In this document: in pieces, positions 11,473 through 64,000 of the stretch
How positions within the stretch are numbered: position 1 is the stretch's first letter
Layout: each line of letters begins with the position of its first letter
NCBI GenBank assembly: GCA_029906985.1
Contig: JARYMT010000001.1
Location: forward strand, 67,223-131,222
Length of the DNA: 64,000 nt
Source of the DNA: Microgenomates group bacterium
Lineage (GTDB): Bacteria; Patescibacteriota; Microgenomatia; UBA1406; GWC2-37-13
Direction: 5' to 3'
Translations under genes and position numbers: made by a program
Notes under the pieces: generated by a model
Databases searched by the model: none
Seen by the model: only the letters and a program-made list of their open reading frames with translations
What the model was told of the DNA's origin: nothing

Positions 11473-11561
11473 AATTCAAGTCGCAAATCAATGATAAATG
11501 ATAAAAAAGTTTAGAAATTTGTTCGCTTTGCTTGATTACCAAAGCGGGTTATTTTTAACTC

Positions 11562-13151
11562 ATGCAAAAATTTACCAATCAGGAAAAAAATAACCTTTTT
11601 TGGTACTTTCTTGTCCCTGTTTTAATTAGCATCACTCTAATTATTTCCCTTTCTCCCTGGTTTTTTGAGTTTTTGGCAACACCGGTTAATCGGGTTTTTA
11701 GTGGAATCAACCGTTGGAGCGTTGATTATTTTCTATACCTTTCTTATGTAGAACTAGGCCGCCGGGGACAGCTTTTGACTAAACTTCTCTTTACCACTGC
11801 TCCGCAAAAACCTGTTTTTGCTCATCTTGTCTATACTCTTCCCGGTCTTGTTTTTGGTAAATTTTTGGGTTTAAGTAGTGTTTTTATCTATCATCTATTT
11901 CGCGGTCTTTACGGTTTAATGTTTTTAATTACTACCATTATTTTTTTCTATAGTTTTACTAAAAGTAAAATTATTACTTTATTGTCTTTTTTATTGACTT
12001 TTTATGTCTCTGGTTTTGCTAAAGTTGACTCCTGGTCGCCTTTAAAATTTTCCCGTCAGCTTGACTGGCTTCAGGAGCAAAATATCATAGAAAGGGCTAC
12101 CGGACCGCTCCATTATAGTTTGGGATTTGTCTTTTTTCTTTTGGCAATCGTTTGGTTTTTCCGAGTAAAGACAAAGCCACTGATAAAATTTTTAGTTTTC
12201 GGGCTTTTACTTAACCTGACTCTTTTTAGTAATCCTTTTTCTTATCTGGTGGCTGGTTTTACTTTTGTTGTTTACAGTTTATTTTTATTGATTGGCAATC
12301 ATAAAAATATTAAAGAATTATTAGCTATTATTTTGGGTTTTTTGACAACTTTACCTTTAATTTTTTATTACCAAATTGTTCTTTCGGGCGAGATTTGGGG
12401 GAAAACCGGTATGTCGCCAAAATATTATGTCGTCACTCATCCGCCACTTTATTTTTGGCCAACTATCTTATCGATCGGGCCAATTTTTTTCTTAGGCATC
12501 ACGGGAATAATATATTGTTGGCAGTCGAAAAAACAATTCTTGGGCAAAAAAGAGTTTATTTTTCTGGCTTTATGGCCAATTGTCCAGTCTCTCCTTTTCT
12601 TTTTTGGTGATTATTTAAAAATTCATCCTTTGCGAATTTTTAGCGGTCTTTATTATTTGCCTTTGGCTTTGTTCTCGGCTATTTTTGTTAAAGAAATTTT
12701 TCCGAAAAAATTTTGGCTGGTGATTTTTATTCTTTTTGTCATCACTTTCCCTAACTATTATTTGTCTTATATCGACCGCCTCTACGCCTTTACCAATTTT
12801 AAAGAATTTGGCCGGTTTTCTTATCCGACTAAAAAACAGGTGGAAGCACTAAGGTTTTTGGAAAAAAATAGTCCGGTCGGTAGCGGTCTTTTAGCGATGT
12901 ATGAAATTAGTTCATTAAGTATTGGTTTTTCCGGAAATTCATCCGAATTCAGCTTGGACCAACAAATAAAAGCTAGATTTTATAACAACCAAATGGATAA
13001 TCAAGAGGCTCTTAATTTTCTTAAAAAAAATCATTTTGATTATGTTTATTTTGGCTATCAAGAAGCTTATGGCGGCGGCAATCCTGAAAAATATCCTTTT
13101 TTAAAAAAAATTTTTGAAAATGAGGAAGCCAAAATTTATAAAGTGAAATAA
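11562..13151 (+). CDS. polytopic membrane protein (GT-C-like candidate), paralogue 2
   Basis: 529 aa with the same architecture and shared C-terminal motifs as 9811..11472. Confidence 0.5.
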   Translation: MQKFTNQEKNNLFWYFLVPVLISITLIISLSPWFFEFLATPVNRVFSGINRWSVDYFLYLSYVELGRRGQLLTKLLFTTAPQKPVFAHLVYTLPGLVFGKFLGLSSVFIYHLFRGLYGLMFLITTIIFFYSFTKSKIITLLSFLLTFYVSGFAKVDSWSPLKFSRQLDWLQEQNIIERATGPLHYSLGFVFFLLAIVWFFRVKTKPLIKFLVFGLLLNLTLFSNPFSYLVAGFTFVVYSLFLLIGNHKNIKELLAIILGFLTTLPLIFYYQIVLSGEIWGKTGMSPKYYVVTHPPLYFWPTILSIGPIFFLGITGIIYCWQSKKQFLGKKEFIFLALWPIVQSLLFFFGDYLKIHPLRIFSGLYYLPLALFSAIFVKEIFPKKFWLVIFILFVITFPNYYLSYIDRLYAFTNFKEFGRFSYPTKKQVEALRFLEKNSPVGSGLLAMYEISSLSIGFSGNSSEFSLDQQIKARFYNNQMDNQEALNFLKKNHFDYVYFGYQEAYGGGNPEKYPFLKKIFENEEAKIYKVK

Positions 13152-25851: not shown

Positions 25852-25969
25852 AAATAGAATATAAAATTATAATAAATAAAAAAATAATAATAACCCTAAA
25901 TTTTAAAATTAAACCAATTCATACTTTTTGATTTTTTCTTCTAAGAAGGCCATTATGAGGTAATATAAT

Positions 25970-26147
25970 GATCCTCCCGAATGAGCAACAAGGAACTTTT
26001 TCCCTGTAAATAAATGGGGAGAAAGGCTCCGAACCCTTAAGGATCCGGAGACGCTATCTCATTTCAGGCGCCGATTGGTGCCCGATTACCCTTAAGTTTG
26101 ATAGCGTAGAGAAAAAGTTTTCAAAGTTTTTCCTCATCAGGAGGATC
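25970..26147 (-). ncRNA. 178-nt structured RNA (unclassified): rho 5' leader element or independent small RNA
   Basis: The ends pair over about 14 bp (GAUCCUCCUGAUGAG / CUCAUUCGGGAGGAUC). The stem continues as AACUUUUUCUC/GGGAAAAAGUU. Internal perfect 8-bp stem ACGCUAUC/GAUAGCGU and a 10-bp hairpin CUCCGGAUCC-UUAA-GGGUUCGGAG. GC visibly above the flanks. A minus-strand TTGACA-18-TATACT promoter (26154-26183) places the TSS at about 26147, the first base of the closing stem. Confidence 0.4.
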
Positions 26148-26314
26148 AGTCAAAGTATACTAAATTTAAATATCGCTTGTCAAGCCGAATATTTTTATCA
26201 TCTTTTGGGGATGATTCTTATCGAGTTTGCGGTTTTAAATTTTAATTTCGGACTTTCTTTATTTTTTTTAGCAGAGAATTAATGAATTTTGATTTTAAAT
26301 TATATAATTAATTT

Positions 26315-37875: not shown

Positions 37876-39828
37876 ATGCTCTCCCAATTTTTGATTAAAC
37901 AAAAAAAAATCCTTCTTCTTTCTTCTTTTTTTATTATCTTTTTTTCAGTTACCGCCATAACAATAAATGAAATTAATAAACCTAAAACATTCAAATCCAA
38001 AGCTAGCGAGATTTCACCAACGCCTCCTTCGGCCGGACACTCACCAAAAAAAGGCGTTGCCGGAACCAAAGCGTTTGAACCGCCAAGATTTAATACAACC
38101 GCCGCTGAAATAAAAGCTTCCTGGTATTACAACTGGTCCTGGGTGCCCTTTGATCGCAGTCTTGGTGACACTGTTGCTTTTAATAGCAATTATTGGACAA
38201 GTCCAGAGTTTGTTCCTACTTTTCTTTCTCGAGGACAAAACTGTGGCTGTCAGACTGAGGCAAAAAGGACCGCATTAACAAATTCCGTTGTTTATCGTAT
38301 GAATCTTATCTGTTCAAAAGGATTTTGTAATCAGGGTCGCTATTACTTAGTTGGAAATGAGCCTGAAATTCCCGGTCAAGATCTTTGCCCAAACAGTCCT
38401 GATCCTGTTCAGGATGCAGTCAACTGTTATGGGGTTATTGCTAAAACGATTAAAATAAAAGATCCGACTGCTAAATTAATTATGCTTGGCCTGGGTTCAG
38501 ACAACGCCGCCTTTATTAGATCCTATATCCAAAAATGGAAAATTGCCTGGGATGGAACTGAAATTGCTGATCTTTCGCAGGTGGCCAACGGCTGGCATTT
38601 TCATGATTATGGTAGTTATAACCGCTGCCCAACCGATGACGTCCGGGCCCGCAATCTTAAAACAGCGGTTGATCAAGAGATGCAGGCAAACTTTGGACGA
38701 ACCATTAATAATCAAGAAATCTGGATAACCGAGATGGGAAGCTTGTCTCCCCCAAATCCTTCAAATACCGTTGAAAGGCAAAAATTCCTTAATCTTATGG
38801 AATGTTTGGTTAATGTATATGAGGCTTCACCGATCGTAAATCGTTATGCCTGGTTTTATACCGGGGACCTTACTCAAGATTGGCCCCTAACCAGTCTTTA
38901 TATTCCGAATGCTTCAGGTGGCTACAACATCACCGATCTTGGAATTAAATACGGCCTTCTCCCTCCCGGTCCTTCCCCATCCCCAACTCCTCTGCCTGAA
39001 AATTGTCAGACCTTTGGTCAGTCGACAGTTGATCAAAAACAAGAAAATAAATGGCGTTATCAAATAATAAATTCTGGTTGGGGCTATGGAGGACCCCTAA
39101 CATTTTATCCTCAAGTTATGGGCAAGCTTGACAAGGTTGAACTTTATGTTGCCGGCTCCGGGAAAATTCAGGTGAAAATAGTTAATCAATCAGGAGTTGA
39201 TATTAGCGATACGATTGAAAAAAATATCGCCGGTGAAGGCTGGCTTGAGTTTGACTTTTTAACCGAAGAGGTTGTTGTCCCTGGTAATTTGTATACAATT
39301 CTTTTTCGAGATTCTGGATCGTCTAATGACGTCAGGCTGTATCGAGGCGACTCATGGAACTGGGCGTATCGGCAGTATGTCAAACCTTGTCAATCCGACG
39401 CCATTACTCCGACTCCAACTCAAAGTCCTACCCCGACTCTCACCGGCCAACCAACCCAGCCTCCATCAACCCCCACCCCGACTCCACCTGCTTCTGCTAA
39501 CCGGGCTCCAGTAATTACCACCTTTGGCTTTTTTCCAGATGGCTATGTTGGACAAATATACAGACCAAACGGAAGAATTTTTTATGTTGAAGGCTATGAT
39601 GAAGATGTTAACGATAATTTAATAATGAAATATTATGGTCCACCTCCGGGGATATCTTTACAAAACTGTAGTCAATTTTTGGTTAATAATAAACGAATGA
39701 TAAAATGTGAAATTTCTGGCACTGTTGATGCCAATACAATTGTTAAAACCTACTATGGACGAATCATTCTTGTTGACTCCCGGGGCGGCCAGACAGAAAA
39801 AAATGTCGCCATTAGAATCACTAATTAA
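37876..39828 (+). CDS. secreted clan GH-A-like glycoside hydrolase (Glyco_hydro_cc-like) with PT linkers and C-terminal Ig/cadherin-like domain
   Basis: N-terminal TM/signal. ASWYYNWSW motif, acid/base-like VGNEPE and nucleophile-like IWITEMGS. PSPSPTP and TPTPTQSPTPT linkers. Confidence 0.55.
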   Translation: MLSQFLIKQKKILLLSSFFIIFFSVTAITINEINKPKTFKSKASEISPTPPSAGHSPKKGVAGTKAFEPPRFNTTAAEIKASWYYNWSWVPFDRSLGDTVAFNSNYWTSPEFVPTFLSRGQNCGCQTEAKRTALTNSVVYRMNLICSKGFCNQGRYYLVGNEPEIPGQDLCPNSPDPVQDAVNCYGVIAKTIKIKDPTAKLIMLGLGSDNAAFIRSYIQKWKIAWDGTEIADLSQVANGWHFHDYGSYNRCPTDDVRARNLKTAVDQEMQANFGRTINNQEIWITEMGSLSPPNPSNTVERQKFLNLMECLVNVYEASPIVNRYAWFYTGDLTQDWPLTSLYIPNASGGYNITDLGIKYGLLPPGPSPSPTPLPENCQTFGQSTVDQKQENKWRYQIINSGWGYGGPLTFYPQVMGKLDKVELYVAGSGKIQVKIVNQSGVDISDTIEKNIAGEGWLEFDFLTEEVVVPGNLYTILFRDSGSSNDVRLYRGDSWNWAYRQYVKPCQSDAITPTPTQSPTPTLTGQPTQPPSTPTPTPPASANRAPVITTFGFFPDGYVGQIYRPNGRIFYVEGYDEDVNDNLIMKYYGPPPGISLQNCSQFLVNNKRMIKCEISGTVDANTIVKTYYGRIILVDSRGGQTEKNVAIRITN

Positions 39829-39916
39829 ATGATAATAAAAAACTCCCTGTAGCAGCTAAGAAAATTGATGGAAAAATTATCTTTGAAGTTTGAATTTAGT
39901 TTGTCTTTTTGATTGA

Positions 39917-40459
39917 TTAAATCTGTTTTTCTCTTTTTTTGGTGGTTATTCGTCCACCTTGCCATTGCCCTCGATAAAGGCTTCCCCCTCCTTTAACTTC
40001 CTCAAACTGGGCATGGACAATCCGACAGCCCATCTCTAAAGTAACCGCCATTGGGCCATCGTTTTTGATGGCAAAAGTTAGTTTTCCGCAATAACCGGGG
40101 GCGACATTGCCTGTCCTTATGATTAGCCCACAACGAAAAGTGGTCGTCCTTGGTTTAAAATTAACCGTGATATTTTTGGGGGTGTTGACTTTTTCAATTG
40201 TTGTTGCTAAATAATATGCTTGCGGTTTTAAGGTAATTGTTTGACTTTTGTCAGGCTGGTAAGCGGCGACTAATTTGATTTTGGGTGTCTCTCTTTCTTC
40301 TTCTCCCAAAAAAGCTTTTCCGCCGCTGATTTGATAAATTTCTCCCAGTCTTAGGTCAAAACCAGCCCCTTCGGGATTAGTTAACTCGCGTTTTGCCAAC
40401 CCCTCAACTAGTTTTTTTTCTTTGACTAATTTTAAAAGTATTTTTGGTCCTAAAATCAT
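39917..40459 (-). CDS. dcd: dCTP deaminase / dUTPase-superfamily protein
   Basis: GAGFDLRLG, LATTIEKVNTP, FKPRTTTFRCGLII, APGYCGKLTFAIKNDGP follow the Dcd pattern. Confidence 0.7.
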   Translation of the reverse strand: MILGPKILLKLVKEKKLVEGLAKRELTNPEGAGFDLRLGEIYQISGGKAFLGEEERETPKIKLVAAYQPDKSQTITLKPQAYYLATTIEKVNTPKNITVNFKPRTTTFRCGLIIRTGNVAPGYCGKLTFAIKNDGPMAVTLEMGCRIVHAQFEEVKGGGSLYRGQWQGGRITTKKREKQI

Positions 40460-40603
40460 AGAAAAAAATTATACCATCAATTATTAGAAAAAATAATTAC
40501 CGGAGAAATTTTAATAAATCTAAAATAAAAATACAAACCACGATAGTAAATTAGACTCGTTGGGTTATTAGTTAATAATTCAACAATCTGTTAGAATTGT
40601 ATA

Positions 40604-41140
40604 ATGCTTAAACGTTCTCTTCGCACCGATATTTTCTTGGCTTTTATTTTGTTATTTGCCGGCGTCAATCTTACTGGTTGGAAAAATGTTCTTCCCTTTT
40701 TAACAAAAAATTTTACCTTAGCTTTTTATCCTCTTTTGACAATCGCTTTTCTTCTTTTAATTGTTTTTTATTTTATTGGCAAAAAAAGGAAAAGCGGTTT
40801 TCTTTTTGGTTTTCATTTTTGGCTGACTTTGCTGGTTTATCCGCTTTGGGCATTGATTCAACAGTTAATTGTAATCTTATTGGTCTATCTTCCGGTTTTT
40901 AAATTAAGTAATTCACCTTTGGTGGCGGTTTTTTTTGGCTCATTATTTTTTGCCGCTCTTCATCTTCCTAATTTTAAATTTTTTTTGGCGACGCTATTTG
41001 GAGAACTGATATTCCTAACTGTTTTCAGTCAAACTGGTAATATCCTGGCTGTTGCCATTTGCCACAGTCTTATTGCTCCGAGCTATTACTTCTGGGTCCA
41101 CGGCGACGACGTTCTTAAACGAAGATTTGCGGGAAGATAA
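40604..41140 (+). CDS. CPBP (CAAX protease/Abi)-family intramembrane protein, possibly catalytically degenerate
   Basis: Polytopic. FFAALHLPN and CHSLIAP motifs are retained, but the usual EExxxR position reads IQQLIV. Confidence 0.45.
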   Translation: MLKRSLRTDIFLAFILLFAGVNLTGWKNVLPFLTKNFTLAFYPLLTIAFLLLIVFYFIGKKRKSGFLFGFHFWLTLLVYPLWALIQQLIVILLVYLPVFKLSNSPLVAVFFGSLFFAALHLPNFKFFLATLFGELIFLTVFSQTGNILAVAICHSLIAPSYYFWVHGDDVLKRRFAGR

Positions 41141-41230
41141 TTTTTAATTTTTACATCACTCATAATACCTACCTACCGGCAGACAGGTTTAAACATTAGA
41201 AATTAATTCATTGAAAATTCATTAGAAATT

Positions 41231-42016
41231 TTAGACAATCCCTATCTCTTTAATCTCAAACCCTCCATCAGCCTCAAAGTTAACCTGATAGATCGGCAAG
41301 CCCTTAGCTAGTCTTCTTGAGGTTTCCATTAAATGATTCTCCGCCATTTCCGACAAAACCTGATAAAGATATTCTCCGTTTAGGCTTTTATAAAGCTTGA
41401 CTGCTTTTTGTTTAACTAATTCTTCTGCCAGTTTTTTATATCTTTCCTGGGCTAGGCTCTGATGATAAACAAAAACCTGAACTTCAATTTTGCCTTCTTG
41501 ACTGTCTAAGTTATAACGGGGATAAAGGCTGTAGGGGCCAGAAACGATTAACACCGCCCCCTCAAGATGTTCGCCGTGAAGAATAATTTCTTTCGCTCCT
41601 TTTTTTTTGGCGCTGGTAAATTTTGCTCGTATTTTTTCGACCTGTTTTTTGTCAAGATTATAAGCTTGGGAGTCAAGGGTCATTTGTTTGAAATGACCGC
41701 AGCCTCCAAGCGTGAGATTTTTTTCGGCGTGAGAATCGGTATGGAACTGGAGATTTTTTTCTCCGCCAACCATTTCCACCAAGACTTGATATGCTTTATC
41801 AAGATCAACTTCAAAGCCATAAGAATTGCCTGTGGCTAAAATCAAGGCTAGATCTCCGGCATCCGCCCCCGGCACCCCGATAGGCGCCAACTGACCTTGA
41901 ACCTGGTATCTACCGTCTATGCATCTACTCGCCAGCCTCATCTTAGCTTCAACTTTATAATGATTGTCCGAAACAATTTTCCTCACCTGTTCAATTGAAA
42001 GAATATATTTTTTCAT
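41231..42016 (-). CDS. hypothetical protein (CIDGR ... HTDSH ... GGCGH motifs)
   Basis: 261-aa soluble ORF, no family recognised. The Cys/Asp/His motif spacing is loosely beta-CA-like. Confidence 0.4.
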   Translation of the reverse strand: MKKYILSIEQVRKIVSDNHYKVEAKMRLASRCIDGRYQVQGQLAPIGVPGADAGDLALILATGNSYGFEVDLDKAYQVLVEMVGGEKNLQFHTDSHAEKNLTLGGCGHFKQMTLDSQAYNLDKKQVEKIRAKFTSAKKKGAKEIILHGEHLEGAVLIVSGPYSLYPRYNLDSQEGKIEVQVFVYHQSLAQERYKKLAEELVKQKAVKLYKSLNGEYLYQVLSEMAENHLMETSRRLAKGLPIYQVNFEADGGFEIKEIGIV

Positions 42017-42101
42017 ATAAGAAAAAATTATATCACATGTTTCTAAAACCTTTGGGGTTTTATTGAAAAGTAAAAATCAAAGATTGAATTATTAACAAAA
42101 G

Positions 42102-42130
42102 TTGACTTTTTTCCCCTAGTTTTATATAAT
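42102..42130 (+). promoter_or_regulatory. near-consensus sigma-70-type promoter TTGACT-17-TATAAT
   Basis: TTGACT at 42102-42107, a 17-nt spacer, TATAAT at 42125-42130. No coding gene for about 490 nt downstream. Confidence 0.55.
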
Positions 42131-42136
42131 TTGCTA

Positions 42137-42620
42137 TAGGCTATTTTATCGCCTGAAGTGCGGTTTAATAAAGTTCGTAAAACAAGCAAACGAACTAACA
42201 AAAAAACAATTAAACCGCTTTTTTGATGTTCTTAAAATCAAAGCTTGAGTCAAGCATTCAGGCTTCAAAAATAAGGATTTTAAGCGCGCACCTTAACAAC
42301 CAGCAGCAACTTGAGGTTCCACACAAATTCCTAATAGGGATTTAATCTATTAAGGTTTGTTGGGAACCGAAATCCAGCCGTAGCGATTAACTCTCTATAT
42401 CTAAAATTAGATGTTTGAGATTATTCGCGTAGGCGGATCAAAAAGGTTATCTCCTTTTAAAAGTTGCCTTCCACTTTAAATCGGTCCAAAAGACGGGTTT
42501 AGAGAGGAAGCGCAACTTATATCGAATAAACAACGAGGAGGTGATGGAGTGATCAAATAAAAAACAACTGAATACGGATCAATTCGTGCAGTATCTAGTT
42601 CCATAGGGAGAAAAAGACCA
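42137..42620 (+). ncRNA. about 0.5-kb hairpin-rich non-coding transcript (large ncRNA or long structured leader of 42624..43001)
   Basis: No ORF of 60 aa or more on either strand. Successive imperfect long hairpins at about 42170-42228, 42315-42368, 42378-42436, 42441-42458 and 42464-42515. GC visibly above the genome background. Confidence 0.35.
42170..42234 (+). terminator. intrinsic-terminator/attenuator-like hairpin plus T-tract about 35-100 nt after the predicted TSS
   Basis: GCGGTTTAAT...(inner GTTCGT/ACGAAC)...ATTAAACCGC followed by TTTTTT (42229-42234). Confidence 0.45.
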
Positions 42621-42623
42621 ACT

Positions 42624-43001
42624 ATGAGAAAGAAAGTAGCTTACTTGATACTTGTCGCGGTGCTCCTCGTCGTTCTCGTGCCAACCTTCACGGACGACAC
42701 TTTTGCCGCCGGCCCAACCCTCAAGCCCGGAACGCTTGTCCGGATCACTGGACGAGGGTACTATAACCCTGAATGCGTCGGGTTTAGAGGGTGGCTATGG
42801 GAAGGTTCTAACCCCCAACAGTTCTACCGAATTTGCGGGTTGCCTCACGGCTATGACCATGGCATAGGAGTAGTTACTCCGAACAATTCGGGAGGTTACT
42901 ACTTTAACAAATGCTATCGAGTCTGCTTCGCATACGAAATTTGCGCATGGTACCCAACAAAATCTCTGGTGCCACTACCGTGGCAACCGGCGATCAGGTA
43001 G
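42624..43001 (+). CDS. small secreted Cys-rich protein, compositionally foreign
   Basis: 125 aa. Signal peptide MRKKVAYLILVAVLLVVLVPTFTDDTFA|AG. The mature part of about 95 aa has 5 Cys and many Gly/Tyr/Trp. Codon choice is GC-rich (CTC, GTC, GCC, CGG), unlike the neighbours. GGGAG lies 14 nt upstream of the ATG. Confidence 0.6.
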   Translation: MRKKVAYLILVAVLLVVLVPTFTDDTFAAGPTLKPGTLVRITGRGYYNPECVGFRGWLWEGSNPQQFYRICGLPHGYDHGIGVVTPNNSGGYYFNKCYRVCFAYEICAWYPTKSLVPLPWQPAIR

Positions 43002-43041
43002 ACTCACCTCTGGGAGAAGAATGAGCGTAACAACGCTCAGA

Positions 43042-43087
43042 GTGGAGAGACGATGTCGTCTCTCCACCTCCCTTTCGGGGGTTTTTC
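43042..43087 (+). terminator. intrinsic terminator (two hairpins plus T-tract)
   Basis: 12-bp perfect stem GTGGAGAGACGA-TG-TCGTCTCTCCAC, then CCC-TTTC-GGG followed by GTTTTT. Confidence 0.65.
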
Positions 43088-43164
43088 CGTAGTTGTTGCT
43101 GCTGGTGTTTGTTGTTTAGGCTTAATCTTTTAAACCTAAACAACAAGCTAATTTAAGTCTGTTT

Positions 43165-44352
43165 TTACTCTTGCTTAAAAAAGGTAGAAATGAGTGCCAA
43201 CGTTTTTGGCCCAAGTCCTCTTATTTTTCGACCATTGTCTCCCTTTAGCCATTGTTTAAGATCTTCGATACTTGTTATTCCTCCTCTTATTAACATCCGT
43301 ATAATCCTTGTCGCCTGACTCTGGTTTGTTTGCCCTAACAAAAATGCCTGAAGCAAAGCAAGAGGGTTTTGGTCTTTTCTTAAACAATGTTTATCAAGCC
43401 TGTTTATCATTCTTTTTATGGTATTTTTTACCTCCTTAAAAGTTAATCCAAGCTCTTCTGCGATCTGTTTATAATTTTTTTTCTCAAATAAATATTTTTG
43501 TAAAATTATCCGCTCAAATTCACTAGTTAATTGATCAATAATTCCCTCTTCGGCTGCTTGTTGATAAATTCTGAGGAATTGTTCCCGGATTTTCGGAACC
43601 AGACCAAGAAAATACATCCGTTTGGCTATCCATAGATATTTGTCTCCAACCCCATATTCATAAGCTAAAGTTTTTAAACTCCAACCGCGCCGTACTGCCT
43701 CTTCATAAACAGCTTCTACTGGTCTGCCAAAAACTGCTTTCAGTTGAGCCTTATATTTTTCTCTTCTTTGCTCATCGGTCATTTTTTTATAAAGACGTTG
43801 TTTCCTTGACTTTGGCCAATTTTGATAATCTATTCCAAATTTCCTAAACCAGCCACAAACTGTTTGAAAATTAAGCCCTAATAAGTTGGCCAAAGCCGCC
43901 GGCCTCATCCTCATTCTTATAATAAATTGTCTAAGCGACTCCCCCGGTTGCCTCAGTTCTTCCAATTTAGGAGATTTTACTCTCTGTGAAAATCTTTTTT
44001 TAGAGGGAGGCAATGATTTCCAGTCTGCTCCAACACGCTTTAACAAAGCTTTCGCTTCATCGTAGGGAATATTAAATAAGTCGGCGATTTCATTTGGTCT
44101 CATTCCAGAATAAAGTATAACCTCCTCAACCGTCTCACCGGCGACTCTTAGGGCTTCTGCTGTTTCTTGAATCTTTCCTGGTTTTAATGGTTTTGTAATT
44201 TTTTCTTTGTTGGGAGGAGTTATTCCATGGGTCGATAAGTAATCTGCTCTTGTATTTAAAACCCGAATCATTGCTTGGACCAAGCTGCCAACAGATTCTT
44301 TTGAAACTGGTGGTGCCTGATCTGCTTCCGGCCGACAAAAAACTTTTTCCAT
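43165..44352 (-). CDS. multi-HTH protein with sigma-70 region-4-like HTH and RNAP alpha-CTD-like HhH domain (paralogue A)
   Basis: 395 aa. Three repeated HTH-like modules (MRPNEIADLFNIPYDEAKALLKRVGADW; MRPAALANLLGLNFQTVCGWFRKFGIDY; WSLKTLAYEYGVGDKYLWIAKR). Sigma-r4-like ERIILQKYLFEKKNYKQIAEELGLTFKEVKNTIKRMINRL. C-terminal RMLIRGGITSIEDLKQW...IRGLGPKTLALI. Confidence 0.55.
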   Translation of the reverse strand: MEKVFCRPEADQAPPVSKESVGSLVQAMIRVLNTRADYLSTHGITPPNKEKITKPLKPGKIQETAEALRVAGETVEEVILYSGMRPNEIADLFNIPYDEAKALLKRVGADWKSLPPSKKRFSQRVKSPKLEELRQPGESLRQFIIRMRMRPAALANLLGLNFQTVCGWFRKFGIDYQNWPKSRKQRLYKKMTDEQRREKYKAQLKAVFGRPVEAVYEEAVRRGWSLKTLAYEYGVGDKYLWIAKRMYFLGLVPKIREQFLRIYQQAAEEGIIDQLTSEFERIILQKYLFEKKNYKQIAEELGLTFKEVKNTIKRMINRLDKHCLRKDQNPLALLQAFLLGQTNQSQATRIIRMLIRGGITSIEDLKQWLKGDNGRKIRGLGPKTLALISTFFKQE

Positions 44353-44477
44353 ATTTAATATTATACCTTATAATACTATAAGATAAATGTGATGTCACCT
44401 GTTAACTATTTACTGACTTCTCCCCATACCGACTAGTGCGGGCAATATTTTAGCTCCATACCAAACGGTGCGGGACT

Positions 44478-44705
44478 TAAAAAGACCATATTTTATTATT
44501 CAAACCTATCAAGATTTCTCCCCAGTTATTATTCGAGTAAGCGGAGGGTGTCAAGAACTATTCCCGGTTACTGTTCGAGCTTGTCAAGAAACATCCTTGG
44601 TTATTATTTAAGCTTGTCAAGAATCTTTATGTTGTTTAAGCAATCCCAGATAAGAAGAGTCCAATAATTAAAAAAATAAACTTTTAAATAATACAAATTG
44701 TAGTG
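44478..44705. repeat. 228-bp direct repeat, copy A (four tandem TTGACA-containing units plus A/T-rich tail)
   Basis: By eye, identical to 46735-46969 except one substitution (44538 t versus 46795 c) and a 7-nt TTAATTA indel near the end. Internal units GTTAYTRTTYRAGC..TTGTCAAGAA have motif starts at 44507 (degenerate), 44549, 44582 and 44615, giving spacings of 42, 33 and 33 nt. Confidence 0.9.
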
Positions 44706-44905
44706 GGGAAAAGGGGGGCGTTCACGTATTAAACCTTTTTAACCTAAAAAGCTATTTAAAAAAAGCAGGTGTCGGAAAGAAAGAAGAAATATTAAGAACT
44801 AAAAATATCACAAACTTTTAAAAGACCACCTTAATTAGAATTAATAAATAACCAATTTCTTAAACTTAATCAACTTTTAGTAAAGCGTTTTATCTCATAA
44901 AAGCT

Positions 44906-46627
44906 TCACGTATTCTTGCTGTTTTCCCAATCATTGACCTGGTCTCTTATTTTTTGTAACTGTTCTTTTATCTTATCAATCTGATGCGGTTTGATGCCTA
45001 AATTTCTCAATTCAGAATCATTACAGGATAATAAAAATTCTAGGGTAGTTTTTTTGTTGTCTCTTAAAAAACGATTAGATATTCTTGCGCCGGCGATTAA
45101 CCGGATTTCCCCCCATTCAGCTGATTGACTGGAAATAATATTTTTTTCAAATAATTTCCGCCTTAACTCATTAATCTGAGTAGGTTTTAATCCTTTGGTT
45201 ATTAATTCGTCATCACTTAGCGTGGCCACTTCTGCTGGTGAGATCTTTAAACGATATAGTCTATTACTAAGTCTTGGTCGAAGCTTAAAATCTGACCATT
45301 TTGCCTCTCTCTTTAGGTCTTCTTGCCAGAGGATAAATTTTTGATAATTAAATTTGGTTTGCAAAGTTAAAGACAAAGTTCCTTCGATCGCTCTAGCCAA
45401 ATTTAAACCATGATCGTTTAACCAGTCTTTAATATCTTGAAGAGTTTTGTTTCCGATCCCTCTTATGCGCCGTAATTGTTGCGGAGTTAGCGCTTTTAAC
45501 TCATCTATAGTAGTAATTCCCCCCCTCAATAAGGCGTTTCTGGCCCGAATTGGTAATCCGGAAAATGGGTCGACTACTCCTAGTTCCACCGCTCCCCAAG
45601 ATTTATTAATATTAATAGCTTTAAGAATTTTTGTTTTTATGCTTTGAAGATGTTGAAGAATTCTTTGTCTGGTGACTCGACCAAATTTTTCCTGATATTT
45701 TTCTAGAAGTTCGCTAATATTGGTAACTAATCCCTTTTTTAATAGATCGAAAATAAATTCTTGTTTGGGCGATAAAGATAAAGACAAATCAGGATATTTT
45801 CCAATTACCCATTTAAATACTCCAACTCGTCCTAATTGACTTATTTCTCTGGTCTTTTCTAACCAATCTCTTAAAGTATCAGGATTTATTCCTTTTTTAT
45901 GAGCAATGTCTCTTAAACTAAGGTTGTTAAAAAAAATTTGTTTTATGATTGTATCGAGATAATCTTTACCAAAGTAGCCCTCCAGTTTTGTTTTTGCTTT
46001 ACCCCTTTTTACCTCGGGAGGCGTTTTTTCTTTTATTGAGACTTCATCTTTGGGAAAATCTGAAAAAGGTATTCCCAATCTTCGATAAAGATAATAAACC
46101 AATGCCTTTCGTTGCCGAGGCAAATGAAGCATTCTACATAATTTATCTGGTCTTAATTGATTACTTATAATATATGTTGTTAATTCTTCTTCCCTGTCGG
46201 GAAAACCGTATTTTTGTAATAATTCTTTTGTTTTTTCTTTTAGACGAAACGGTCTTTCAAAAAACGGCCAATCAGCCCCAACTCCTTCTAATAAAGCTCT
46301 TGCCCGGGACGGACTTACTTTTAATATTCGTGCCAACCTTCCGATGGTTGGTTGTGCCGCCGCCAGCCATTCTTCTGGCGTTTGACCGGGAGTTCTTTGG
46401 ACTCTTATTTTATCAAGTTCAACAGGACTAAAAACTCCCGACAAAGGTTTAATCCCGGTTATAGGCGGACCATCAAGACCTTTTGATCTTAAAAAATTTA
46501 TTCTTGTAGCTACTATGGACACTATTTGAAGAACTAACCCGAGCGCATTATTATCTGGCTTAACTTGTTCGTCATTTTCTTTTGGGGGTTCAACAAGATT
46601 TTGTCCTAATGAACATATTCTTTCCAT
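44906..46627 (-). CDS. multi-HTH protein with three RNAP alpha-CTD-like HhH repeats (paralogue B)
   Basis: 573 aa. The N-terminal about 350 aa are collinear with 43165..44352 (e.g. IGRLARILKVSPSRARALLEGVGADW; LSLRDIAHKKGINPDTLRDWLEK). GLPIRARNALLRGGITTIDELKALTPQQLRRIRGIGNKTLQDIKDWLNDHGLNL closely follows the alpha-CTD pattern. Two further degenerate copies follow. Confidence 0.6.
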   Translation of the reverse strand: MERICSLGQNLVEPPKENDEQVKPDNNALGLVLQIVSIVATRINFLRSKGLDGPPITGIKPLSGVFSPVELDKIRVQRTPGQTPEEWLAAAQPTIGRLARILKVSPSRARALLEGVGADWPFFERPFRLKEKTKELLQKYGFPDREEELTTYIISNQLRPDKLCRMLHLPRQRKALVYYLYRRLGIPFSDFPKDEVSIKEKTPPEVKRGKAKTKLEGYFGKDYLDTIIKQIFFNNLSLRDIAHKKGINPDTLRDWLEKTREISQLGRVGVFKWVIGKYPDLSLSLSPKQEFIFDLLKKGLVTNISELLEKYQEKFGRVTRQRILQHLQSIKTKILKAININKSWGAVELGVVDPFSGLPIRARNALLRGGITTIDELKALTPQQLRRIRGIGNKTLQDIKDWLNDHGLNLARAIEGTLSLTLQTKFNYQKFILWQEDLKREAKWSDFKLRPRLSNRLYRLKISPAEVATLSDDELITKGLKPTQINELRRKLFEKNIISSQSAEWGEIRLIAGARISNRFLRDNKKTTLEFLLSCNDSELRNLGIKPHQIDKIKEQLQKIRDQVNDWENSKNT

Positions 46628-46633
46628 TCTTGT

Positions 46634-46662
46634 ATTATACTTTTAAAAATACTATAAGTCAA
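46634..46662 (-). promoter_or_regulatory. consensus promoter TTGACT-17-TATAAT placed for a leaderless mRNA of 44906..46627
   Basis: On the minus strand, TTGACT lies at 46657-46662, followed by a 17-nt spacer and TATAAT at 46634-46639, then ACAAGA and the ATG (46625-46627). The expected +1 therefore coincides with the A of the ATG. The homologous sequence upstream of 44352 reads CTTATAGTATTATAAGGTATAAT-N7-ATG. Confidence 0.55.
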
Positions 46663-46734
46663 TTATAATTAACTTATCAGTGGCGAAATTTTTCCATGAA
46701 TAGTTTTTATTAAGTGGCCTTAGGTAATTTGTGG

Positions 46735-46969
46735 TAAAAAGACCATATTTTATTATTCAAACCTATCAAGATTTCTCCCCAGTTATTATTCGAGCAAGCG
46801 GAGGGTGTCAAGAACTATTCCCGGTTACTGTTCGAGCTTGTCAAGAAACATCCTTGGTTATTATTTAAGCTTGTCAAGAATCTTTATGTTGTTTAAGCAA
46901 TCCCAGATAAGAAGAGTCCAATAATTAAAAAAATAAACTTTTAAATAATACAATTAATTAATTGTAGTG
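46735..46969. repeat. 235-bp direct repeat, copy B
   Basis: See copy A. Same orientation, offset 2257 bp, located upstream (in the minus-strand sense) of 44906..46627. Confidence 0.9.
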
Positions 46970-47209
46970 AAAAAATAAGTTATTGTTTAGGACTAGTTTA
47001 GAATTAAAATTGGGCAGCAAACTTTGTTATGAAGCGAGAATTTCACACCTCAACCTTGTTTCGTCAAAAGTTTAAAGAAACATTATTAAAAGATCCCTTA
47101 CGCGGTGTCCTATAAATTTGGGGTTGGCTTATCAATCAATAATAATTTAATCTAAATTATTTGGGTTAATCAGAATAATTAAGCTAGTTAAATCTGTTAA
47201 AATTTCTTT

Positions 47210-48361
47210 ATGGCCGCTTCAGTGATTGTCTTTGATCCAACCGCAAATGATGAATTAAGCCGTGTCCGCGGTGTTGGCCGCTACCTACAAATTCTAAAAG
47301 AAAATTTTTCCGGAGAATGGATTTTTACCAACAATTTAACCACAAAGCAATTGAGCTATTCAACAATTTTCATTAACCCATTTTTTAACTTCCTTCAACC
47401 GCCTCTAACTCTCAAACGCCTTGCCAAAAAACAGATCGCCGTTATTCATGATCTTATTCCCTTAAAATATCCCGGGCATTTTCCCGCCGGAATCAAAGGA
47501 AAGATAAATGTCTTTTTAAACAAACTGACTTTAAAAAATTATGACTTAATAATAACCGACTCTGAGGCCTCAAAAAAAGACATTATTCAAATACTTAATC
47601 AACTGCCGGAAAAAGTTAAGGTAGTTTATCCTTGTTTACCAACAGTTTTTAGGGAAAATAAAAATCGGAAAGAGGCTGTGACAGCGAGCCAAAAAAATTT
47701 AAGCAAAATTTTGTTTCCAGACCCACCTCCTAACTTTTGTATTTATGTCGGCGACGCTACCTGGAATAAAAATTTAGTCAACCTGGCAAAGGCAATAAAG
47801 ATAATAAATGTTCCGTGTGTTTTCGTCGGGAAAGTTTTTAGCGCGGGTGGTGAGCGACGGGGGGACCCAACGAGCCGAGCGACATTATCCGCACGGAAGC
47901 ATTTACCAAGTGAGGCGAGCGAGGCTGGGGCTGGCGCGAACCAAGACCCGCCGAAAAATCCATGGTTAAACGAACTCAATCAATTCCTTTTTGAAGCCAA
48001 AAACGACCAACGCTTTATTTTTCCCGGTTTTGTACCTGATGAAAGGCTAATCCAACTCTATAAGCAGGCGAGATTAAACATTCTTGTTTCCCGTGACGAA
48101 GGCTTCGGTTTCTCCTACTTTGAAGCCGCCTCCCAAGGCTGCTCATCAGTTCTTTCCGACATTCCGGTTTTTCGCGAAACCGCCGATAGTGCTGCTTTAT
48201 TTGCCAACCCAAATAATCCAAATGAGATTGCCGATCAAATCGGCGAACTTTATTTTAATGAAGAATTAAGAAATAATTTTAGTCAAAAAGCAAAAAAGCG
48301 CTTCCGTCAATTTTCTCCAGAGAAATTCAAAAGAGAGTTTCTTAATTCGCTTAATTTTTAG
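47210..48361 (+). CDS. family 4 (GT-B, group 1) glycosyltransferase with GC-rich internal insertion
   Basis: C-terminal GT1 core ..VSRDEGFGFSYFEAASQGCSSVLSDIPVFRE.. (EX7E-type). The segment 47841-47955 encodes SAGGERRGDPTSRATLSARKHLPSEASEAGAGANQDPP and is strikingly GC-rich. Confidence 0.8.
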   Translation: MAASVIVFDPTANDELSRVRGVGRYLQILKENFSGEWIFTNNLTTKQLSYSTIFINPFFNFLQPPLTLKRLAKKQIAVIHDLIPLKYPGHFPAGIKGKINVFLNKLTLKNYDLIITDSEASKKDIIQILNQLPEKVKVVYPCLPTVFRENKNRKEAVTASQKNLSKILFPDPPPNFCIYVGDATWNKNLVNLAKAIKIINVPCVFVGKVFSAGGERRGDPTSRATLSARKHLPSEASEAGAGANQDPPKNPWLNELNQFLFEAKNDQRFIFPGFVPDERLIQLYKQARLNILVSRDEGFGFSYFEAASQGCSSVLSDIPVFRETADSAALFANPNNPNEIADQIGELYFNEELRNNFSQKAKKRFRQFSPEKFKREFLNSLNF

Positions 48362-61525: not shown

Positions 61526-62239
61526 TTAGCAGATGGTGGTTCCAACCTTTTCTCCCATGACTGCTTTTTTGAGAGCGCCTTTTTCGTAGATATTAAAAAC
61601 CACGATGTGAATTTTGTTGTCGCGGCACAATGAAATTGCCGCTTTATCAATTACCTGAATTTTATCGTCTTTAAAAGCTTCTTCAAAGCTTAAATAATCA
61701 TATTTTTTTGCCTCCGGGTTTTTAATTGGATCTTCGTGATAGACGCCACTGACTTTTGTCGCCTTAAAAACCGCTTCACATTTCAATTCCAAAGCCCGCA
61801 TCGCTGCTGTCGTATCGGTGGTAATAAAAGGCAGGCCTGTTCCTCCACCTAAAATAACAACTCTTTTTTTCTCTAGATGCCTGACCGCTCTTCTTCGAAT
61901 AAAAGGCTCGGCCACCTGCTCCATTTTTATCGCCGTCATCAGTCGGGTTTGGACGCCAACTCTTTCCAAAACCTCCTGTAGCGCCATGGCATTGAAAATT
62001 GTCGCCAGCATTCCCATATAGTCGCCGGTCGCCCGATCCATACCCTGTTTGCTGGCCGCCAAACCACGGAAAATATTGCCGCCGCCGGAAACAATCGCCA
62101 CCTCAACTCCAATCTCATAAATTTCTTTAATCTCATTGGCTAAATATAAAAGAAAGTCCGGATCAATGCCAAATTCCTTTTTGCCTTTGAGAGCTTCACC
62201 TGATAATTTAAGAAGGATCCTTTTGTATTTTGGTTTCAT
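61526..62239 (-). CDS. pyrH: UMP kinase
   Basis: KRILLKLSGEAL, VSGGGNIFRG, GDYMGMLATIFNA, ILGGGTGLPFITTDTTAA motifs. Confidence 0.95.
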   Translation of the reverse strand: MKPKYKRILLKLSGEALKGKKEFGIDPDFLLYLANEIKEIYEIGVEVAIVSGGGNIFRGLAASKQGMDRATGDYMGMLATIFNAMALQEVLERVGVQTRLMTAIKMEQVAEPFIRRRAVRHLEKKRVVILGGGTGLPFITTDTTAAMRALELKCEAVFKATKVSGVYHEDPIKNPEAKKYDYLSFEEAFKDDKIQVIDKAAISLCRDNKIHIVVFNIYEKGALKKAVMGEKVGTTIC

Positions 62240-62370
62240 ATCGTTTTTTAATCATAGCAAAAAAATAAAACCGATGCAAAACTTTTTTGAAAAACTTTCT
62301 TAAAGGAAGAATAAATAATGTAAAATTATTTATCCTCAGCGGTTTTTGTTTTTTTAAATTATAAAAAATT

Positions 62371-64000
62371 ATGAAAATAAAAAAACTGCCTTTTTTTGAA
62401 AAAGGCCATCAGGGTAATATGAATTTTGATAAAAATTCTTCCGATAGTGGATGGTTTTTTTATTTTTATATTTTTTTTATCGCGGCTTTCTTTTTTGTTT
62501 TGCTTATCCGTCTTTTCCAGTTGACGGTGGTTAAAGGAACTTATTATTTAAGTTTGTCCGAACAAAACCGATTAAGGGAGGTAATTATCGAAGCTCCCCG
62601 GGGAAAAATTATCGACAGAAAAGGGTTTGTTTTGGCAGAAAGCAGTGATCCTGATCTTGATATTTTCAGTCAAAGAATTATCTCTAAAAGACATTATTTT
62701 AATCCCGAATCAATTGCCCATCTGGTTGGATACCGACAGTTGGCTGATGCCAATGATTTAAAAAATGATGATTGTCTAAATAAATTAAAGCTGGGAGACA
62801 AGGTGGGGAAAAAAGGAGTAGAAAAACTTTTTGACTGCGATTTACGCGGTCGCAACGGTAAAAAACTCATTGAGGTTGATGCTTTTAATCGGCCGGTAAA
62901 AAACGGCTTGATTAATATCATTGCTCCAGAACAGGGAAAAACTATTCAATTGGCCTTAGATTCGGAACTTCAGCAAAAAGCTTTCGCCCTTTTATCGGGA
63001 AAAAAGGGGGCCATCATTGCCTTAAAGCCTAAAACCGGTGAAATTTTAACCATGGTTTCTTCTCCAAGCTTTAATCCCCAAGATTTCGAAGATCAAAACC
63101 ACGAGGCGCTCGAAAACTATCTAAAAGATGAAAATCATCCTTTTTTTAATCGCGCCAGCGAAGGCGCTTATCCGCCGGGGTCTGTTTTTAAGCTGGTGGT
63201 CGCCACCGCCGCCCTGGAGGAAAAATTAATCGATGAAAAAACCGTTTTTGAAGACACGGGAAAAATTACCGCCGGCCCCTTGACTTTTGGCAACTGGTAC
63301 TTTTTACAATACGGAAAAACCGAGGGGATGGTTGATGTAGTTAAGGCTTTGCGGCGGTCTAATGATATATTTTTTTATCATACCGGGGCGCTTCTTGGTC
63401 CGGAAAAAATTAAATTCTGGGCAGAAAAAATGGGTTTGGGGAAAAAAACCAATTTTGGTCTTGAGGAAAATGCCGGGGTTATTCCTTCTTCTTTTTGGAA
63501 AGAAGAGGTTTTAAAAGAACGCTGGTATTTGGGTGATACCTATAATTTGTCAATCGGTCAGGGATATCTTTTGGTTTCCCCTCTTCAGCTGGCCCAACTA
63601 ACCTCAATTTTTGCCAACGACGGCTATCTTTGCCAGCCCCAACTTTTAAAAAACCGCCGGCCAAATTGTCAAAAAATTGGTCTTTCCGAAAAAACCCTAT
63701 CCCTTATTAAAGAAGGTATGAAACAAGCTTGTTTTCCGGGTGGAACCGGTTGGCCGCTTTTTGACTTTAAAGTTAATGTTGGTCAAGAGGCAAAACCTCG
63801 CGCCTCAAATCAATCACCTAAAGAGTCAACTAACGAGGCCGATCAGACAAAAAAACCGCCTTCGGCTTTCTTGCCGATTCAGACCGCCTGCAAGACCGGC
63901 ACGGCGGAATTTTATTCTTATTCAAAAACTCCTCACGCCTGGTTTACTGTCTATGCGCCGGCTGATAATCCGGAAATTGTTTTAACGATTTTGGTTGAAC
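62371..64000 (+). CDS. mrdA: penicillin-binding protein 2 / peptidoglycan D,D-transpeptidase (3' end outside window)
   Basis: Not in the ORF track because no stop lies in the window. I read the frame as open from ATG 62371 to base 64000. TM anchor, LFQLTVVKGTYY..APRGKIIDRKGFVLAE, SxxK (GSVFK), SIGQG, KTGTAE motifs. Confidence 0.85.
   Translation, partial: MKIKKLPFFEKGHQGNMNFDKNSSDSGWFFYFYIFFIAAFFFVLLIRLFQLTVVKGTYYLSLSEQNRLREVIIEAPRGKIIDRKGFVLAESSDPDLDIFSQRIISKRHYFNPESIAHLVGYRQLADANDLKNDDCLNKLKLGDKVGKKGVEKLFDCDLRGRNGKKLIEVDAFNRPVKNGLINIIAPEQGKTIQLALDSELQQKAFALLSGKKGAIIALKPKTGEILTMVSSPSFNPQDFEDQNHEALENYLKDENHPFFNRASEGAYPPGSVFKLVVATAALEEKLIDEKTVFEDTGKITAGPLTFGNWYFLQYGKTEGMVDVVKALRRSNDIFFYHTGALLGPEKIKFWAEKMGLGKKTNFGLEENAGVIPSSFWKEEVLKERWYLGDTYNLSIGQGYLLVSPLQLAQLTSIFANDGYLCQPQLLKNRRPNCQKIGLSEKTLSLIKEGMKQACFPGGTGWPLFDFKVNVGQEAKPRASNQSPKESTNEADQTKKPPSAFLPIQTACKTGTAEFYSYSKTPHAWFTVYAPADNPEIVLTILVE

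Follow-up and report, generated by a model that had tools for sequence, protein, structure and literature searches.

This report concerns a 64,000-nucleotide stretch of DNA from a Microgenomates group bacterium (GenBank assembly GCA_029906985.1, contig JARYMT010000001.1, positions 67,223 to 131,222 of the forward strand), which we call the window, and within it a locus that consists of a near-consensus promoter, a long hairpin-rich leader, the gene of a small secreted protein and a short structured segment beyond the stop codon of that gene. Two boxes, one in the leader and one past the gene, are exact complements of each other and bracket the coding sequence (CDS). An initial annotation had described the promoter and the leader hairpins and had offered several explanations for them. 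We have followed these up by comparison with relatives, among them the copies of the leader on two syntenic contigs, L004 and L008. The parts of the locus are as follows, in window coordinates.

42102..42130, + strand: sigma-70-type promoter TTGACT-17-TATAAT, scoring 11/12; transcription start site predicted at about 42137
42133..42159, + strand: P1, 5'-terminal hairpin with core AGGCTAT-TTT-ATCGCCT (42138-42154); in the consensus fold, with compensatory changes
42160..42224, + strand: P2, terminator-like compound hairpin plus U6 (42219-42224); in 3/3 copies
42224..42290, + strand: P3 with inner hairpin P3a (42241-42265), in the most conserved block
42299..42310, + strand: 5' box ACCAGCAGCAAC, in a predicted single-stranded, invariant linker (42291-42314)
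42315..42368, + strand: P4 hairpin, an insertion in the window only, absent from L004 and L008
42372..42438, + strand: P5, long hairpin of varying length; five pairs changed on both sides (base and middle stems)
42441..42458, + strand: P6, small hairpin; three pairs changed on both sides, in a place where the alignment is uncertain
42461..42518, + strand: P7, long hairpin, 92% identical in L004; C-G to A-U in L008
42535..42545, + strand: Shine-Dalgarno (SD)-like element GAGGAGGTGAT, about 80 nt 5' of the start codon, read from the sequence; followed only by ATG-GAG-TGA
42624..43001, + strand: gene of a 125-aa secreted protein, signal peptide plus SH3-like beta-barrel (from the reading frame, the HMMER family and a structure model)
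43042..43086, + strand: 3' hairpin A (43042-43067), then terminator-like hairpin CCTCCC-TTTC-GGGGG plus U5 (43066-43086); both conserved in L004
43095..43106, + strand: 3' box GTTGCTGCTGGT, complement of the 5' box, with an imperfect extension to about 43125
43109..43148, no strand assigned: hairpin B, flanked by the 3' box and by the stop codon with which a convergent 395-aa gene ends; compensatory stem changes relative to L004 read from the sequences

The promoter had been annotated correctly. A score of 11/12 is reached at only one other site between 38 and 47 kb, at 46662-46634 on the - strand, and the hexamers are kept in all three copies of the leader (TTGACT-17-TATACT in L004, TTGCTT-17-TATAAT in L008). 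No plausible start codon follows before the ATG at 42624, with which the 125-aa open reading frame (ORF) begins, and the 487 nt in between form the leader. As the initial annotation had stated, there is no ORF of at least 60 aa in 42017-42623 on either strand, the largest having 52 aa. It had also named a missed protein-coding gene as something that would overturn its view, and the relatives speak against one, as they do not keep an open frame: the only frame of the conserved block, a 40-aa frame opening with TTG (42223-42345), is broken in L008 by a 1-nt deletion that lies inside this block, so the conservation does not come from a hidden peptide.

The fold of the leader is exceptionally strong. 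The minimum free energy (MFE) of 42137-42623 on the + strand is -146.3 kcal/mol, compared with -98.7 +/- 5.7 for dinucleotide shuffles (z = -8.4; 0/100 as good), and the opposite strand scores z = -4.6. The length of the gap is less unusual than had been thought. A 600-nt non-coding stretch was considered exceptional in this genome, a view that we cannot uphold, as the window holds five further gaps of at least 460 nt. Their fold scores range from +0.9 to -4.9 (mononucleotide shuffles), and among the long gaps of the window it is only the leader gap that has a score as strong as z = -8.4.

The relatives of the gene for a neighboring 261-aa protein come from Candidatus Roizmanbacteria, in the Microgenomates group of the Candidate Phyla Radiation (CPR). 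The leader RNA is present on two syntenic contigs, L004 and L008, on the strand that matches the + strand of the window, and a synteny search by way of the 261-aa neighbor found no such intergenic RNA at L001, L003, L005/L006, L007 or L009 (47-67% aa identity). We refer to the leader in the window, L004 and L008 as type A; the L008 copy is incomplete, as its contig ends within the last hairpin. Conservation was expressed as the identity between the window and L004 for each segment. It amounts to 90% from the promoter to the 5' box (42102-42312), 92% for P7 and 88% for the 3' hairpins with the 3' box (43042-43130), compared with 71% for the two flanking genes, 70% for the spacer upstream of the -35 hexamer and 60% for the CDS of the secreted protein, which is about the floor for a global alignment. 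At the protein level, this CDS is only 25% identical, while the neighboring proteins of L004 are 64-68% identical to those of the window.

The initial annotation had proposed a search for homologs and a test for covariation, and both have turned out in favor of a conserved RNA. Covariation was assessed with RNAalifold on the window, L004 and L008. The consensus contains P1, P2 (P2a), P3 (P3a), P5, P6 and P7 together with an invariant helix, 42306-42312/42461-42467, and 97% of the cells in this three-sequence alignment are paired (102 pairs). Twelve pairs have changed on both sides, compared with 4.9 +/- 1.7 in shuffles (0/500 as high) and with one to three in controls in which the partner was slid by 1-3 columns. 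The compensatory pairs are located in P1, P2a, P5, P6 and P7, and U.G/G.U pairs in P2, P3, P3a and P7 are possible on the + strand only. Since both relatives lack P4 and L004 has a shortened P5, the leader is a string of modules rather than one large fold.

The individual hairpins give a more detailed picture. In P1, a C-G pair of the window is A-U in L004/L008, a U.C mismatch becomes U-A and an outer G.U becomes G-C. P2 is the compound hairpin that had been annotated, with its T6, at 42170-42234; the hairpin is there, about 10 nt further to the left, at 42160-42218, with the T-run at 42219-42224. It has a base stem of 10 bp (42160-42169 with 42209-42218) and an inner hairpin, P2a (42172-42196), and a simple terminator scanner overlooked it, since its loop is longer than 8 nt. 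The motif GCGGTTTAAT...ATTAA(A/G)CCGC plus T6 is present in the window, L004 and L008, giving a stable stem with a U-tract immediately behind it in each. Two pairs of P2a have changed on both sides, and the base stem shows U-A versus U.G, a wobble possible on the + strand only. An RNA of about 100 nt or an attenuator had been suggested here; the element itself is real, because the hairpin and U6 are conserved in 3/3 copies with compensatory changes, while termination is not something that can be read from a sequence.

Downstream of P2, the window and L004 agree at every position over 82 nt (42231-42312), and L008 differs at three positions within 42263-42268. The pairs of P3 in this block are invariant and so carry no covariation information; four G.U pairs fit the + strand only. 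The four further hairpins that had been annotated lie essentially where they were placed, at 42315-42368, 42372-42438, 42441-42458 and 42461-42518. P5 has a conserved 3x3 internal loop (GUA/GUA, or GAA/GUA in L004), and in the base extension of P7 (42464-42467 with 42513-42516) one G-C reads G.U in L004 by inspection, a change outside the covariation count. The counterpart of the SD-like GAGGAGGTGAT in L004 is AAGGGAGGT, at the matching place, and the element may be a stand-by or stabilizer site; in the MFE fold, the real SD (42605-42611) has no pairing partner. The leader also holds GCAACTT twice and AAGTTGC once (42306-42312, 42461-42467 and 42513-42519; cf. 43095-43099). Because GCAACTT occurs twice, AAGTTGC is able to pair with either copy: with the upstream one, which is also part of the 5' box, it encloses P4-P6, and with the downstream one it extends P7. 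These alternatives are mutually exclusive, are conserved in L004 and could form a switch. A long-range helix closing the leader (42142-42154 with about 42536-42550, in the SD-like run), which appears in the single-sequence MFE fold, has been dropped, as P1 is a local hairpin with compensatory changes in L004/L008 and the partner is absent there.

The type-A leader is rare, with three copies among the collections searched, in the thinly sampled Roizmanbacteria clade. Further copies in the window were not found by blastn, nhmmer or covariance model R1. A model from P1 to the box gave one weak match in the window, at 11522-11640 (+) (16.7 bits, rough E 0.014), which lies at a gene junction and is probably an AT-rich terminator-like hairpin. 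A metagenome scan with the 20-mer GCGCGCACCTTAACAACCAG matched only L010 (6347-6366) and L011 (9187-9206), on the - strand, in one GC-rich non-CPR organism about 110 nt upstream of a gene for an extracytoplasmic function (ECF) sigma factor. We judge these matches to be chance because nothing else aligns.

The gene behind the leader can be assigned to a protein family. A word-index search with the 125-aa ORF returned no homolog, and an exhaustive HMMER search of 1.84 billion representatives returned 15 hits, 13 of which are small secreted proteins of 112-200 aa with 28-44% identity. They share the motif G..V...G.GYYNP.C.G..G..W.F..P...C...NG..RVC...CGWYP, and the ORF is a real gene of a rare family. 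An AlphaFold2 model (pLDDT 87) resembles SH3-like barrels weakly. A C-terminal LysM domain is found in three of the 15 aligned sequences, including the L004 protein (E = 1.9e-10), and the window protein has none; the product of the 125-aa gene is probably associated with the cell wall or the cell surface. Family genes were located at L004 1419-2060(-), L012 1263-1640, L013 2062-2430, L015 106-486 and L016 2501-2839. At every family locus examined there is a strong promoter, and the leader, of 140-490 nt, forms long hairpins ahead of the start codon; type-A copies are always upstream of, and co-oriented with, a gene of this family.

Two observations on these loci may be added. The secreted-protein gene has a GC content at third codon positions (GC3) of 0.57 (overall GC 0.52), compared with 0.33 +/- 0.04 (maximum 0.40) for 21 other genes of the window, and GC3 is raised relative to flanking genes in all family members examined (0.51-0.66), which could come from high expression, from selection on mRNA structure or from transfer. 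At L012 (1640-2129) and L013 (2430-2792), a second strong promoter (e.g. CTTGAC...TATACT) comes after the family gene, with another long hairpin-rich leader and a 136-aa gene behind it, and small genes in genomes of this type may commonly have long structured leaders.

The initial annotation overlooked that the non-coding flanks are much better conserved than the gene which they enclose, and it also overlooked the box past the stop codon. The 5' box ACCAGCAGCAAC (42299-42310) is the exact 12-nt complement of GTTGCTGCTGGT (43095-43106), which starts 8 nt past the U-run of the terminator-like hairpin behind the stop codon. The inverted repeat extends imperfectly to about 31 nt in the window, taking in a hairpin and the box on both sides. 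The comparison covered all family loci that could be fetched. Homologous 5' boxes occur in L004, L015, L016, L012 and L013, and both ends are readable in five loci with a perfect run, which represent four independent lineages (L004 being the ortholog of the window locus), plus L016. The paired boxes, and the share of shuffles with a run as long, are as follows.

Window: ACCAGCAGCAAC / GTTGCTGCTGGT, 12 nt perfect, 0.3% of shuffles
L004: ACCAGCAGCA / TGCTGCTGGT, 10 nt perfect, 7% of shuffles
L015: AAAACCAGCAGCAGA / TCTGCTGCTGGTTTT, 15 nt perfect, 0/300 shuffles
L012: ACAGTCAGCAAG / CTTGCTGACTGT, 12 nt perfect, 0.7% of shuffles
L013: AAAGTCAGCAAGCAAA / TTTGCTTGCTGACTTT, 16 nt perfect, 0/300 shuffles
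L016: AAGCCAACAGCG / CGCTGCTGGCTT, 11/12 with one A.C, not significant

The longest perfect run in L016 is 8 nt and lies in a different, chance segment (25% of shuffles). The differences between loci are coordinated: AAC/GTT in the window is AGA/TCT in L015, ACAG/CTGT in L012 is AAAG/CTTT in L013, and GCAGG/CCTAC in L012 is GCAAA/TTTGC in L013. Selection thus acts on the complementarity itself. The boxes are 541-964 bp apart, and at every locus a long stable hairpin stands directly 3' of the 5' box, with one or two hairpins 5' of the 3' box. Complementarity that is longer than chance and kept through changes on both sides, as a candidate pairing between 5' and 3' untranslated regions (UTRs) should have, is present in this family. 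The duplex of the boxes is better on the + strand in the window, L015 and L013 and about equal on both strands in L004. Whole-UTR energies computed with RNAduplex were discarded as a test, since long sequences always pair.

With moderate confidence, we read the region as a long, structured 5' untranslated leader that belongs to the mRNA of a small secreted SH3-like protein and comes with an attenuator-like hairpin and a 5'/3' stalk, which would control processing or stability. A leader controlling the secreted protein had been among the initial proposals, and it is the best supported of them, as the region is conserved with compensatory changes and is always found upstream of the same family. 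Transcription would start near 42137 from the near-consensus promoter, and P1, at the extreme 5' end, would shield the transcript from 5'-end-dependent decay. P2 with its U6 would terminate a fraction of the transcripts early and so work as an attenuator or give rise to an RNA of about 88 nt. Read-through RNA would carry the near-invariant P3 module and expose the single-stranded 5' box, followed by a variable number of stable hairpins (P4-P7), the SD-like element and the real ribosome-binding site. The 5' box could then pair with the 3' box of these read-through mRNAs, closing the message around the coding region, and the resulting stalk would either guide endonucleolytic processing that leaves hairpin-protected ends or block access of RNases, as a UTR pairing in Bacillus subtilis hbs mRNA does (PMC5737220), while the SD-like element may hold a 30S subunit as a stabilizer. 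The shielding by P1, the exposure of the box, the part played by RNases at the stalk and the SD-like stabilizer are all modeled on established knowledge of bacterial RNA decay and of SD-like stabilizers. The sequences themselves show the promoter, the hairpins with their covariation, the association of leader and gene family, and two complementary boxes that vary together; early termination at P2, the presence of both boxes on the same transcript and the role of the stalk are inferred from them. We also put forward, as a tentative generalization about which we are doubtful, that mRNAs of the CPR-restricted SH3-like/LysM family share an undescribed architecture, in which a conserved 5' module with an early attenuator is combined with a co-varying UTR stalk that closes the mRNA and serves as a processing or stabilizing device.

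Several points weigh against the leader reading. The covariation comes from three type-A sequences, one of them truncated, and the pairs of P3 and P3a, like the linker and the 5' box, show no variation on which a covariation test of their fold could be based. With nhmmer and with covariance model R1, no link emerges between the type-A leader and those of L012, L013 or L016; a CTTAAAATC(A/T)AAAGCT motif common to the window and L016 is suggestive only. No antiterminator pairing for P2 appears in the MFE or consensus folds, though no dedicated search for one was run. The duplex of the boxes is better on the - strand in L012 and in L016, where the + strand has the A.C mismatch, and there is thus no consistent preference for the + strand. 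Finally, in the window and in L004 a good terminator (43066-43086) stands 8-12 nt ahead of the 3' box, which would therefore be present on read-through transcripts only.

The last two points also count in favor of an explanation at the level of DNA, in which the boxes are operator-like sites or sites of recombination for a segment that can be inverted or exchanged (phase variation, or cassette swapping of a fast-evolving secreted protein), with the leader hairpins still acting as RNA. Inverted repeats of 10-16 bp perfect (11/12 in L016) bracket the CDS in six loci and co-vary as recombination sites would, the window repeat has its imperfect extension to about 31 nt, and the CDS has diverged extremely between flanks that are conserved (25% aa identity versus 64-68% for its neighbors). 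Yet Pfam, applied to the eight window genes within about 5 kb (37876-48361), and NCBIfam, applied to four, reveal no recombinase, although an enzyme acting in trans is possible, and at the other loci no recombinase domain was reported for the called neighbors, several of them lacking any Pfam hit. In the assemblies, the gene has the ON orientation in all six lineages, and six P0122 contigs (of 11 read) are identical over 709 nt (shortest 575 nt) with no flipped variant. The repeats enclose P7, hairpin A and the terminator but not the promoter module; with conserved elements on both sides, the repeats do not mark the edge of conservation. We regard the DNA-level explanation as rather unlikely.

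An independent trans-acting small RNA (sRNA) of about 88 nt, comprising P1 and P2 to the end of U6 (42137-42224), with the conserved downstream part as a separate unit, seems to us improbable. A strong promoter, a 5' hairpin and a GC-based stem plus U6 make up a classic sRNA architecture, and here it is conserved in 3/3 copies with compensatory changes. However, no promoter-like site was found on the + strand between 42224 and 42624, which would leave the better conserved P3, box and P7, and the gene as well, without a promoter. The large 39-nt interior of P2 should also slow the folding of a terminator, and the leaders of L012, L013 and L016 have no such early U-run.

A riboswitch-like leader had been among the initial proposals, and of this description it is the leader part that finds support. 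A near-invariant 82-nt block in the 5' UTR of a cell-wall-associated (SH3-like/LysM) gene family does invite the idea of a ligand sensor, and there is an analogy in the three unrelated lysM motifs, orphan candidate cis-regulators in the same gene context in other phyla, one of them in the CPR phylum TM7 (PMC5737381). No Rfam model, lysM motifs included, matches at E <= 10, though, and the terminator-like P2 precedes the conserved core, where a riboswitch would have its expression platform downstream. No junction or pseudoknot is supported, the real SD is unsequestered in the predicted structure, and distant family members have different leaders. We consider a ligand-sensing riboswitch highly improbable.

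An Rfam scan had been suggested as a check, and it assigns no family to the leader: at gathering thresholds, Rfam 15 finds only one tRNA in the whole window, and at E <= 10 there are six chance-level matches in 41900-43250, none of them to ROOL, GOLLD, OLE, raiA, HEARO, ydaO or a lysM motif. No described RNA family matches the leader. A large stand-alone structured non-coding RNA of the ROOL/GOLLD/OLE kind, for which the length of about 490 nt and the very strong fold score would speak, is barely credible, given the lack of an Rfam match, the string of independent hairpins that are gained and lost whole between close relatives, and the constant position directly upstream of, and co-oriented with, one gene family. 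Nor did the idea of a remnant of a foreign element find support: nothing similar was found in phage, plasmid and viral collections (two viral-contig pattern scans plus blastn), and the locus is syntenic with L004 and L008.

As a kind, the reading that we prefer, in which a structured leader combines an attenuator-like hairpin with a 5'/3' UTR interaction, is not without precedents. In the Bacillus subtilis hbs mRNA, a 14-bp interaction of the 5' UTR with the 3' UTR modulates RNase Y cleavage (Braun, Durand and Condon 2017, PMC5737220). The present locus resembles hbs in its highly structured 5' UTR, in helices of 10-16 bp (11/12 in L016) that would join a leader box to a box after the stop codon, and in the SD-like element of the leader. 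It differs in that the organism is a CPR bacterium and the gene and sequence are others, in that the pairing recurs and co-varies across a gene family, in that the 3' box comes after a terminator-like hairpin, and in that the pairing is a prediction from sequence. Another case of 5'/3' UTR interaction in a single gene is icaR. The lysM motifs are orphan structured 5'-UTR motifs of LysM-domain genes, with one in a CPR phylum (2017, PMC5737381). The L004 copy of our leader likewise precedes a LysM-domain protein, but there is no covariance-model match, the leader is much longer and modular, and the window protein has no LysM.

Three other known systems share some of these features. As in attenuators that use an intrinsic terminator, a GC-based stem with a direct U6 lies within the first 90 nt of the transcript in 3/3 copies, but here there is no upstream sensor domain and no detectable antiterminator, and the conserved core is downstream of the terminator. 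The RNase III processing stalks of pre-rRNA and phage early mRNAs arise from long-range pairing of the sequences on either side of a functional RNA. If such a stalk were cleaved at the present loci, this would similarly leave hairpin-protected ends, as hairpins follow the 5' box and precede the 3' box in every locus, although the helix is short (12-17 bp with bulges). As in invertons, short co-varying inverted repeats flank a 0.5-1 kb segment downstream of a fixed promoter, but there is no recombinase nearby and no inverted variant among the assemblies, and the repeats enclose a whole gene together with conserved RNA hairpins.

To our knowledge, almost nothing has been reported on gene control at the RNA level in CPR bacteria, and this setting is one of three things that make the locus noteworthy, the others being non-coding parts that are far better conserved than the gene and its neighbors, and box complementarity that is family-wide and co-varying. 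Conservation of the leader above that of the surrounding genes points to strong selection on the non-coding parts of the mRNA. If the proposed pairing is real, it would be the first family-wide, covariation-supported closure of a bacterial mRNA by its UTRs and would take 5'/3' UTR pairing from a few single-gene cases to a conserved design principle, in which conserved UTR arms would also permit swapping of the coding part or its extremely fast divergence. If the boxes should instead be DNA recombination sites, the locus would be a phase-variable or swappable surface-protein locus in an episymbiont lineage.

Some neighboring genes and other gaps of the window deserve mention. The two genes downstream encode unusual transcription-related proteins, both on the - strand: a 395-aa protein (43165-44352), of which only the C-terminal part is sigma-70 region-4/ECF-like, and a 573-aa protein (44906-46627) with an RNA polymerase alpha C-terminal domain/HhH motif. 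The second TTGACT-17-TATAAT of the region (46634-46662, -) stops 6 nt short of the ATG (46627) with which the 573-aa gene begins, which suggests a leaderless or near-leaderless mRNA for it. Further away, a stretch of 1.5 kb (62240-63739) has no ORF of at least 80 aa on either strand and adjoins a putative UMP kinase gene, a 237-aa ORF at 61526-62239 (-). A search of this stretch against Rfam at E <= 1 returned nothing beyond noise; its right-hand 1 kb has a GC content of 0.42 compared with a window mean of 0.36. The fold z is about -3 to -4, and the stretch could be a decayed gene or another RNA. The sole other long gap with a clear fold signal is the 463-nt gap between divergent genes at 25852-26314, with z = -4.9 and -4.4 on the two strands.

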